A DNA stretch of 62,220 bases, filler included, from Hausera hauseri (Eukaryota): assembly GCA_046269625.1 (NCBI GenBank). It is 10 parts of 10 records of this genome, joined end to end, with 100 filler letters (N's around TTAATTAATTAA, not from the genome) between each part and the next. Parts side by side here need not be neighbours in the genome. Positions count along the whole stretch, not along the records: positions 42,809 to 47,226 come from JBJURY010591667.1; 9 more parts are not named here. One strand, written 5' to 3'. A program made the translations under genes and the position numbers. Of the stretch, positions 42,809 through 47,226 are shown piece by piece. Position 1 is the stretch's first letter. Every line of letters starts with the position of its first letter. Below the pieces are notes generated by a model, which was not told where the DNA came from, did not search any database, and saw only the letters and a list, made by a program, of their open reading frames with translations.

Positions 42809-44710
42809 GCTAATTCGTACCCAATGCCTTCTTTACTGGCATCCGTCTTAATTGTGAAGGTAAATTAAAGTCGGGGTATTGTAAAACTGGTTCACTTGTT
42901 AGAATTTTTTCCATTTCGTCCAACGCCTTCTGTTTGACGTCAGTCCACTTCCATTTAATCCCCTTTTTAGTAGTCTATATAAGGGTGCATTTATTTTCGA
43001 GTTATCCGGAACATAAGTGGCGTAATATTTACAGAGACCTAACCAATGCCTTAATTCTTTTTGATTTTGCGGCTCCCTCCCTGCAGTCTGCTATTTTATT
43101 TAGTAACGACTTATCTGATTTTGATCCTCCTTCTTCAACTATATGGCCAAGGTAGGATAGTGCATTTTGAGCCCATTTACATTTCTTTGGGTTTAATTTT
43201 AATTCGGCTTCTTCAACTCTCATTAGTGTATGTTCAGTATCTTTTAATTGTTATTCTTCCGTTTTTGATGATATCATTACATCATGTAAATACGCAAAAG
43301 CATGGTCTAATCCCATTAGCATCTCATTCATCATCCTTGTGAAAATAGCTGATCCGGTAGTGATACCAAATGGCATGACCTTAAATTCGTAAATGTCGTC
43401 GTGTGTTTTGAATGCCGTTTTATATCTATCTTTGTCCTCGATCTGCACTTGCCAGTATCCGGATTGTAAATCCAGAATAGTAAACCATTTTGCTCCTGAA
43501 AGTCTGTCCAAAGCCTCTTTTGCTGATGGTAATGGAAAAGAGTCTTTTATCATAAGGTTGTTTAATGCTCTGTAGTCAATACAGAATCGATGTTTTGTGG
43601 TACCCTTTTTCCTAACCATGAGGATTAGTGAATACCAAGATATATAACTGGGTCTTATTATATCAGCCTTGAGCATCCATTCGACTTTTTTGTTATCTCG
43701 GGCCTTAGCGAATGCAGCGGAGGATACCATTTCTGCATCTTTTGATCTTCCAGATCTATTTCTTCGTTTGAACCGGGCCTTTTTTAAGCGGAATAGTCAA
43801 CTTTCATGTTTTTGCTCTACTGATGTCTTTGTCATCCTTAGCAATGATTGATTTATAATGACACAGCAGTTCACAAAATCGGCAGTAAGATCCAGGCGAT
43901 AATTTAGTTTCAACGTGGGGCGGAAAGTCGACATATTTAAAAGGCTTTTCCTCAATAGTTGTCGACTACACTCTATAGGTATTCCGTAGAATGGTGTATG
44001 CATAAAATGCGACAGGAGTTGGCGCGTTATTTGCTATTCGGATTGATACACGACCCGAGTGTACTCTTGTCAGTATGTTACTGATTATTATATTCTGATC
44101 CAACGTCTCTTTTGGTTCAAAATATATGGGTTGATCGTCGTTTTGCTGAATTTGAGCGTAAATTATTATCTCTGTTCTCGGTGGAATGTTTTCATCTACA
44201 GACATCCACACTTCTCCGAACTTCATATTTTTAGCGTTTTTATACCTTTATTTGGTCTGATTTCTAATTGTTTTCCTGTTTGCAAGTCAACTGCTATATT
44301 CGGTAATTTTTAGAGTAGATCACATCCTAAGACTACGTCGTCGGTTAATTGTTTCATAACTACAAATTCATGATGGAAAAACTGTCCAGCTATTTGAACT
44401 TCTAGGTTCCATTTAAACATCGTTTTCGACATGTGGCCAAAAGCTCCTGTACTTCCTGGATCTTTTTTACATGGTGCGTATAATTGTCTTCTCAGCGTTT
44501 CAGGTATTGAATCATTTTTAATGTAAGACATCTCAGTACCTGTATCGATTAATGCATAAATTTTCCAATCTTCAGTAATGATTTTGGCGAAAGGTCTTCC
44601 TTCTATTACTGTTCCAAAACAGTTTGATTCCACTTTTGGGCATTTAATCACCGACAGTTTATGTCCGTTGATTCGGATTTCTGGGGAGGATACTATATTT
44701 TCCGACAATT
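42809..44710 (-). pseudogene. pol: Decayed Ty3/Gypsy pol (protease, RT, start of RNase H)
   Basis: YALIDTGTEMSYI..VVLGCDLL; RFCIDYRALN; LDLQSGYWQV; VMPFGI; AYLHD (decayed YLDD); KTDASKEGIG. Confidence 0.92.
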
Positions 44711-45015
44711 GTCTTATCTCTTCATTTGGATTAATTGATTGTTTTCTATGTTCGATTCTTCCATTTCATGTGTATTAATTCATGGTTCTCGATTATTAGT
44801 GTGTGGTTCCACATTTTGGAAGGTTTTTAACCTTGGATTTTCCCAAACAGTTGATCTAGTTTCTATATTCCGAGGTTCTCTCGGAAAATACAATATTCTG
44901 GGGTCGTCGAGGGACTGTCGATAACACATTTTCCGTAGAACTCCGTAACGTTTGGTTCCTTTATTAGGGTCTTCTAAGCAAATTGTCCTTTTGTAGATTT
45001 CTGTTTGATGCGAAC

Positions 45016-47226
45016 TCATTGACTGTTTGTCACAGTCTTTATAGATTGGAGAGGTAGGGGCAGCATAGGCAATGGTGCTTTAATGACAGAATACGTCTTA
45101 TGTTTGTCTGATCTTGGGAGTACGTCTCCTCCCTTAGGCTCGTTATCATCTGAATTATTCCTTCGAATATTAGGTTTTGTAAATTTCCGCTTGTGCAAAA
45201 ACACAGGCCTTTCTTTTCGTTTACGATTATAATAACCGACATGACGTTCTACGTCCGATTTCCATCTATGTTTTTCGTATGCTTTTAAGAATTTCCCAAA
45301 AGGCGTTATGATTGCAGTCAGTATTTTACATGAAAATCCAGTCAATGTGAATATGTCGTACCCATTAATTAATGCCCGGTTGACTGCCTTAATCATTTGT
45401 ATTAGAAAATATATCGCTAAGAATCCGGATACGGCTTGGCCAAAAATCAAAAATCTTCCCCAAATTTTGTACAGTATTTCTGTGGTTACTCGCTGATAAT
45501 GTTTTACGCCAAGTAAGAATTCCCATTCAGCCTGATATCGAGTATCGTCTAGTACTGAGGCCATGGCTCGGTTTAATTTATATGTTCGCTGTCACGGAAA
45601 AGCGAGGAATTGTCTGAAGGCTTTGATTTCCTAAGGCCTATATATGCCTTTTGACGAGGTATCTTGAAATTTGTCGTCCGTAATTCCTTTTGCAAGATTT
45701 GTTTTTATTAATTTATTTGGAGCGGCAGTACTACCTCCATTTGGCAAACTAACACAATCTGTTTCACTACGTCTAAACATAGGCTCTCCTAAGCTTGCCT
45801 TACAATCCTTAAGGATTGTCGGTTCAGTTGCATTGTCTATTAGCACTCTAGTGAGTGGCATAGCTAACCTAGGAGTATTCTGGTAAACGACGGGAAGTTC
45901 TTGCATGCAGCGTTTTTCTTCAACGTTGATGGGTACATATTTTTTCTCACATTCGTAAGTTAATAGTACTTCACCGGTAACTCAACCGAAAATTCCTTCT
46001 CTTATAGGAATTATTGGAGATGCCAACTCGGGATTAGCGTAAATACGAGCCAGTTTTGTCCTCATGATTTCCATATCCAATATGCAATCATTTGTTATCA
46101 TTTTGTGATATAGCTCGGTTATTCCGACTTGCCCTTTGTAATAGAAGTAATCGTCTATGTTTTTCAGATAATACTCAATTAGGATATCTTGCGTTTCTAA
46201 CTTGTAAGCCTTCGCATTTACTTCTGTCTCGGCGACGAAAAACGCCTCATAATTAGTAGCGAACATCACTACTTCACAACTAGAAATCATTTCTTTTTAA
46301 ATAAATTTCAGCCCATGCTGATCAGAGATTAATATAGTGGGCGTAGGATGTTCTGATACGTATTCGCGTGTCCTTGAGTTGGTATCAGACTTATCTGCAT
46401 ATCACTTCCCGATAGTTTTATTGAACTTTAATTCTTTAATTTTGATAAAGCTACAGCTTCTTCCATAGGAAGGTTCCCATATTATAACCGAACTTCTAAA
46501 AACACAGGTTCCGTCTTGTAAATGACATTTTTGATTCTCGGTTTATAGTTTGGTGACACTATGGAACATTACTTTCTGTGTTCGCATCTCTGATTCACAG
46601 AAATCCACGACCACTACGTTTGCTTGTAATCCTTTTCCGTTGTCGTATTTCGCTTCGTTAAAATGCCCGTTATGCATGTCTAACCTTCCGACCACTACCT
46701 TATATGCCCCAATTATCTTTCCTGGTTGCATTTCTAATTCCATACTGTCCCATTGTACTCTTCCGGTCTCCTTAGCCTGTTTGCAGTGCTGTCGTTCTAA
46801 GTTCATCGGAATTGGAGTTGTTGGTTTGATTACTGAAGAATGTCTGTGCATTAATCCACAATGAAAAATGCTACGAGACTGTCTCAGCATGCATTCCATT
46901 CCATCGAATGATATTAATTCTTGTTGTTGGTACAGAAAATAATTTTTCGCTCTCGTTTTTAGCTTGTGCGGCCCGGAATCTTCGCATGCTTCCAAATCCA
47001 TTAGGGAATATTTCTGCCCTAGTTTAAACTTATCGCAGTCATAGACGGTCACAGCGCCTATGTGCTTTATTAGAATCATCAAGGTGAGTAAGCTGATTAG
47101 CCAATTTGGTTCGTTTTTCCGATGGCTAATATCCATCGTTGTCAAATTACGTAACATATCGTCGAGTCTATTACTGGTCCATTTGTCTTCTTCCTTGTCA
47201 AATAGTCTTGACCAATTCACTTCGCA
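45016..47226 (-). pseudogene. Chuvirus/Jingchuvirales-type fusion glycoprotein (env-like), one frame with nonsense mutations
   Basis: Hydrophobic leader then VYDC; FHCGLMHRHSS; TGEVLLTYEC; CMQELPV..MPLTRVL; SSKGIY. Membrane region WGRFLIFGQAVSGFLAIYFLIQMIK..INGYDIFTLTGFS. These match recalled chuviral glycoprotein motifs in order. Confidence 0.82.

Follow-up and report, generated by a model that had tools for sequence, protein, structure and literature searches.

Why does a chuvirus-type envelope gene (env) lie directly upstream of a gypsy protease and reverse transcriptase (RT)? The question is raised by a 62,220-nt window of Hausera hauseri DNA (assembly GCA_046269625.1), which consists of short contigs strung together with N spacers between them. 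Most of the long ORFs in the window belong to mobile elements, and Rfam yields no match within it. The element in question lies on contig JBJURY010591667.1 (window positions 42809–47226); all of its parts are on the minus strand of this 4.4-kb contig, which ends on both sides. The following parts were recognized.

47104..47226, minus strand: stop-free stretch of about 41 codons before the leader, truncated at the contig end (three-frame translation)
47044..47100, minus strand: hydrophobic leader, residues 43–61 (hydropathy 2.07; both relatives and stand-alone glycoproteins have leaders that align with it)
45256..47091, minus strand: gB-like (class III) envelope domain of the chuvirus/Monjiviricetes type with six in-frame stops (PF24664; Cys; fold of the intact relative P0044)
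45298..45453, minus strand: membrane region with a main stretch (592–610) and a weaker one (625–643) (hydropathy; P0042 and P0048 have the same pair)
45016..45297, minus strand: basic cytoplasmic tail up to the env-frame stop (translation; P0195 aligns in the env frame down to 45052)
44780..45079, minus strand: env-protease spacer, a 99-codon stop-free run in another frame (translation; covered by diverged contigs of run X1)
44310..44765, minus strand: retroviral-type aspartic protease (PF00077 RVP, E 1.3e-5, residues 56–151)
43780..44247, minus strand: conserved domain between protease and RT (collinear tblastn matches to P0042 and P0193–P0196)
42860..43720, minus strand: Ty3/gypsy RT and connection (PF00078 RVT_1, E 2.9e-32; PF17919, E 1.9e-4)
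42809..42860, minus strand: presumed first part of RNase H, truncated at the contig end (three-frame translation)

The env frame extends from 47226 to 45021 on the minus strand and comprises 735 codons with six internal stops (codons 228, 275, 310, 415, 532 and 545). The remaining two frames of this stretch contain 65 and 59 stops, and the best frame in each of 1000 dinucleotide shuffles contains at least 27 (mean 43). The Pfam family PF24664 (Monjiviricetes_fusion) matches env residues 46–657 with an E value of 2e-55. Of the 14 alignment columns that are Cys in each of 11 relatives, 13 are also Cys in the window env. A single tblastn HSP in a single frame covers the ectodomain and membrane segment, which indicates that there is no frameshift in this part. 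An earlier reading, made from the sequence alone, had described about 735 codons broken by nonsense stops only, with the Cys pattern and membrane segment of chuviral glycoproteins; these descriptions hold, and the profile search that it proposed confirms the fusion-protein homology. With its conserved cysteine scaffold, leader and membrane anchor, the protein has the features of a gB-type env. A phmmer search of PDB sequences with env returned no matches, and a profile built from 80 env relatives gave weak gB matches only (best E 0.0029). None of the 2915 candidates from a word-indexed protein search matched env, and no relative was found in the viral contigs searched with it. A metagenome locus (L001, one locus among 19 stretches) was rejected as a chance match inside a bacterial GTPase-type ORF.

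To characterize the fold, the intact relative P0044 was modeled by AlphaFold2 from 80 aligned sequences (pLDDT 83). All the PDB matches listed by Foldseek are herpesvirus gB (HSV gB E 2.7e-14; TM about 0.35–0.45), and the best viral fold matches are chuvirus-like glycoproteins (E 2.1e-43). Judged by this model, P0044 env folds like herpesvirus gB and chuvirus G; the fold is that of P0044, which is tied to the window env by sequence (E 4.7e-81). At the membrane region, the model shows one long helix followed by a short one.

Downstream of env, the distance from the env stop is ~250 nt to the protease ORF and ~415 nt to the protease domain, a small correction to the ~300 nt given previously. The same reading found no capsid or zinc knuckle in this gap. 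Pfam likewise matches no family to it, but the spacer is not empty: its 99-codon open run, a stretch chosen after looking, is matched by only 8 of 2000 shuffles, and the spacer is likely decayed linker coding sequence. The RT begins near 43700. A Pfam scan of 43780–44247 found no named family in this conserved domain, which occupies the place of the dUTPase-like domain of the Burro element. The terminal segment 42809–42860 is, judged by its motif, presumably the start of RNase H. The order of protease, RT and RNase H, together with the gypsy-type RT and connection, places the element in Ty3/gypsy (Metaviridae). The contig copy is dead and broken: env, spacer and protease lie in three different frames, and pol carries stops, frame changes between and within domains (thumb region) and a damaged RT catalytic motif. 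Because the frame changes also occur inside pol, decay accounts for the shifts between env and pol in the present copy.

To determine whether this order is found elsewhere, env was compared by phmmer with 1.84 billion representative proteins, which yielded 547 matches at E<=0.001, including 18 at E<=1e-30. A domain scan covered 14 of these 18 top relatives, the remaining four being fragments of 203–492 aa. Env is followed by protease in one protein in 11 of the 14, and five of these continue into RT. The remaining three (P0044, P0051 and P0055) stop at or within env, and P0043 and P0191 resemble a split pair. Among the 14, a zinc knuckle or Retrotrans_gag precedes env in three. Env is most similar to retroelement polyproteins (E to 1e-87), with stand-alone glycoproteins appearing only from ~1e-27. 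A profile search of proteins of 2770–5000 aa gave six matches among 1973 candidates, five of them new. All five new proteins (3036–4057 aa) contain, in this order, env, protease, RT, RNase H and integrase, with zinc knuckles first in three. Six proteins (P0041, P0042, P0190, P0193, P0195 and P0197) are collinear with the contig env, protease and RT by tblastn. The protease-to-RT distance is 284 codons in the contig compared with 267–299 in 11 relatives, and the distance from the membrane segment to the first protease is 304 codons compared with 130–668 in 17 relatives. As far as the sequences of relatives indicate, the env-protease adjacency is not accidental, with 11 of the 14 scanned top relatives fused and five of them into RT. 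The env and the Gypsy protease-RT that the earlier reading had placed side by side on one strand are parts of one element, as the collinear relatives show. Of the further occurrences that it had suggested seeking, the same order is present in the fused relatives, and diverged X1 contigs cover the spacer.

The relatives also bear on what precedes env. About 120–1300 residues stand before the same leader in these proteins, which makes it probable, as previously suggested, that the leader is internal to a larger polyprotein; the ~41 codons before it probably represent the end of a polyprotein region lying further upstream, and residues 43–61 would be an internal signal sequence. Gag marks are found upstream of env in P0045, P0049, P0055, P0193, P0194 and P0197, and the contig ends ~41 codons before the leader, so the description of env as lying where gag should be is misleading. 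The 41 codons carry no Bcl-2-like signal (130 of 500 shuffles score as well), this being a short stretch. In P0040, P0044, P0051, P0055 and P0197, a Bcl-2-like helical domain stops shortly before the env leader; the Bcl-2 matches are weak (P0044, E 9.6e-4; P0040, E 0.2). The leader therefore occupies the position expected of a Bcl-2 tail anchor, and one segment may serve both as tail anchor and as env leader. Among the papers listed by a literature search for Bcl-2 in gypsy polyproteins, only the 2019 Burro review was relevant.

Other proteins in the set show further peculiarities. P0197 contains SUMO-like and ankyrin domains besides env-pol, and P0190 (4844 aa) has several proteases as well as ankyrin repeats. 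Between env and RT, P0041, P0045, P0190 and P0194–P0196 have two to four protease-like motifs, and some of these proteins have more after integrase; the part of the Burro review section consulted (PMC6431247) does not mention multiple motifs of this kind. P0137 (1000 aa) joins a chuvirus-type fusion domain to immunoglobulin domains, a possible domestication or gene-call error. P0042 bears the label of a hypothetical protein from a bacterial MAG and is probably host DNA in a bin.

We constructed an env tree from the window env and 40 of the 150 listed matches, picked by score and coverage. The window env falls inside a 14-row set (100/99) that consists of 11 env-protease proteins, two proteins ending after env and the window env itself. 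The remainder comprises 25 stand-alone-sized glycoproteins, mostly labeled as solo by length and not by domain scan, one DUF5641-env protein and one integrase-env protein. The window env is nested three levels deep among the env-before-protease polyproteins (98/91, 97/90 and 100/99) and does not group with viral G proteins, as a stand-alone glycoprotein EVE would. Its branch is long (1.93), and its best identity is 31%. In the RT search, 34 of 45 candidates matched; the four best of 20 matches to the RT core are env-pol relatives (181–194 bits; next 154), and the RT shares no more than about 48% identity with any sequence found. The RT-core tree leaves the contig RT unplaced, and an AU test of a clade with the env-pol relatives is neutral (p 0.40).

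The family is also repeated. In run X1, which may be the source sample, 12,149 contigs match the stretch at 85% identity or more, and 9816 of them are below 95%. X1 contigs cover all 30 bins, with 0.01 continuing unlike the stretch. Summed depth is 1331–1967 in the spacer bins, 3146–35,623 in the env bins and 649–989 in the bins between protease and RT. A contig identical throughout has a depth of 9.17, so that the summed depth is hundreds to thousands of times greater, although it does not give a copy count. The family is multi-copy, with multiple genomic copies as in errantiviruses. At one of the six env stops, nearly all of the X1 depth has another letter (among the differences listed, 40 of 648), so that this break is particular to the present copy. 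A loose end at 45165 is shared by 38 X1 contigs.

We assign the family with high confidence to a multi-copy Ty3/gypsy lineage with the layout (Gag ...)-Env-protease-linker domain-RT-RNase H-(integrase). The contig is a decayed copy of such an element, the active forms of which probably made all parts as a single polyprotein, like Burro. As the contig copy has env, spacer and protease each in a frame of its own, we infer the single ORF rather than see it. It is conceivable, if unlikely, that the element and its order are the same but that env and pol are natively in different frames, as a separate ORF or through a programmed frameshift, with Pol made below the Env level. The env frame does close with a stop ahead of a protease in another frame, P0044 and P0051 stop just after env, and the part of PMC13524379 consulted describes ORFs arranged GAG-ENV-POL with fusion left unstated. 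However, env and protease are fused in most of the scanned top relatives, a long open run is kept in the spacer, and the pol of the contig copy also has internal frame changes, which decay explains.

That env and pol are chance neighbours, either an endogenous chuvirus glycoprotein fragment beside a 5´-truncated Gypsy or two nested elements, is highly improbable. According to the part of PMC10084718 consulted, fragmentary Gypsy copies are frequent neighbours of jingchuviral glycoprotein EVEs, the contig RT is unplaced in the RT tree, and none of the eight X1 records listed spans env to protease. In contrast, the similarity of env to retroelement polyproteins far exceeds that to stand-alone glycoproteins, and its position in the tree is among env-protease polyproteins; moreover, a diverged X1 contig, different at 41 of 297 letters, extends past the env stop into the spacer, and at one place in the spacer 31 X1 contigs differ. 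Similarly, there is very little to recommend an independent capture of a chuvirus glycoprotein by the present Gypsy lineage as a new kind of endogenous retrovirus, which the sequence-only reading had favored. The long env branch, the low identities and the chuvirus glycoproteins as best viral fold matches of P0044 would suit it, as would the statement in the part of PMC13524379 consulted that GAG-ENV-POL elements are not monophyletic by Pol. However, env is nested at three levels within polyproteins that already have env before protease, which argues against an independent capture, and Ty3/gypsy elements with such an env in the env-first layout have been published (PMC6431247 and PMC13524379, as far as consulted). 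The element is best read as a divergent member of the described env-first class, neither a new kind nor an independent capture.

One close parallel is Burro/GYPSM1, a giant Gypsy of dugesiid planarians. In the sections consulted of Arkhipova & Yushenova (2019; PMC6431247), its env lies in frame between BCL2 and protease and matches mononegaviral fusion glycoproteins, which was called the first such case; a dUTPase-like domain lies between protease and RT, SUMO-like and ankyrin accessory domains are described, and the many copies include decayed ones with stops and frameshifts in Dugesia japonica. The present element resembles Burro in having Env between a Gag region (seen in relatives) and protease, an extra domain between protease and RT, and many copies. 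The contig copy differs in that neither ankyrin nor an additional protease separates env from protease, and the one-ORF feature is broken in it but present in relatives. The 41 codons that precede its leader show no Bcl-2-like signal. Relatives were compared with Burro by domain layout alone. By this analogy, drawn from descriptions of Burro, the element appears to work like Burro, and it is not filed as Burro proper.

A literature search on gag-env-pol retrotransposons returned one match, the eLife paper of Chary & Hayashi (RP108449; PMC13524379). The parts consulted describe nematode, bryozoan and flatworm Ty3/gypsy elements of GAG-ENV-POL order whose env is gB-type and Chuviridae-like, and a row search of the supplement gives 9 flatworm and 10 bryozoan rows, all ENV_HSV, with up to 215 copies. 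The present element shares with these HSV/gB-type errantiviruses a Ty3/gypsy pol, a gB-type env 5´ of pol and multiple copies; theirs are intact, whereas the contig copy is broken and partial. Env lies directly 5´ of pol in one element, as in the GAG-ENV-POL errantiviruses, with no listed X1 record bridging env and protease, and every testable feature of the gB-type group except intactness is present. The family may be among their 1512 elements. Judged by title and a citing passage, the metavirus of Sacco et al. (2022; PMID 35550022) is similar in that an RNA-virus glycoprotein was captured with env before pol, in nematode elements. Anakin, a mosquito BEL/Pao element with a chuvirus glycoprotein (Dezordi et al., 2020, PMC7642597, in the part consulted), has a glycoprotein of the same Pfam family but a BEL/Pao pol with env 3´ of integrase, in contrast to the gypsy-type pol and env 5´ of protease found here; P0067, a DUF5641-env protein with the Anakin layout, sits in the opposite half of the env tree. 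The element is neither a plain chuvirus EVE nor an Anakin element. The part of PMC10084718 consulted reports no clear Gypsy capture in arthropods, and that of PMC12440569 on Troyka contains nothing relevant to the env-first layout.

How would a fusion protein be made in the middle of such a polyprotein? In a scheme drawn from general membrane-protein topology, the N-terminal Gag part would stay cytosolic, and the stretch 43–61 would serve as an internal signal, directing the gB-like ectodomain into the ER and being cleaved by signal peptidase. Transfer would be halted by the stretch 592–610, leaving protease, RT, RNase H and integrase back in the cytosol and tethered to the Env tail until the protease of the element releases the Pol parts. 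The weaker stretch 625–643 should not cross the membrane; otherwise, Pol would end in the lumen. Env trimers would give budded particles the ability to fuse with other cells, germ or stem cells being possible targets. Among the papers listed by a literature search for particles or fusion tests of Burro Env, in which subscription papers were mostly not covered, only the 2019 review was relevant. One broken copy is in itself of minor importance; it contributes a divergent family to a class of envelope-bearing retrotransposons that is rare but already described. The question for the class is how a membrane fusion protein arises mid Gag-Pol polyprotein and whether the elements spread between cells, for which intact planarian elements are better suited than the contig fragment. 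More speculatively, the family could be a deep, unsampled branch of single-polyprotein Gag-Env-Pol elements amplified in an animal outside Nematoda, Bryozoa and Platyhelminthes, a proposal that we regard as doubtful. If true, the env-first layout would extend to further hosts, and both a single old origin of that env and the entry of Pol into particles on the Env tail would be suggested.

Several other elements are present in the window. An uninterrupted single-ORF Gypsy gag-pol of 1558 aa without env in the ORF lies at 14810–19486 (minus strand), and a 1127-aa Gypsy pol preceded by a short gag-like ORF lies at 1383–5413 (minus strand), decayed pieces similar to which occupy about 49000–58900. 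The stretch 8977–14284 (minus strand) contains BEL/Pao-type remains (DUF5641, E 1.4e-16). A broken protein-primed type B DNA polymerase with an endonuclease VII domain is found at 22627–25579, and a TBP-like ORF (PF00352, E 2.5e-7) lies nearby on the opposite strand, which suggests a Polinton-like or viral fragment. A short stretch at 38395–38600 (minus strand) presumably resembles a Rex1/Babar-type LINE, and a Pfam scan of the overlapping ORF gave no match. A long-ORF Gypsy gag and pol occupies 26581–32984 (minus strand) and carries a pol insert of ~450 aa between RNase H and integrase, which, judged by eye, appears to contain an OTU-like stretch and a second protease-like motif.
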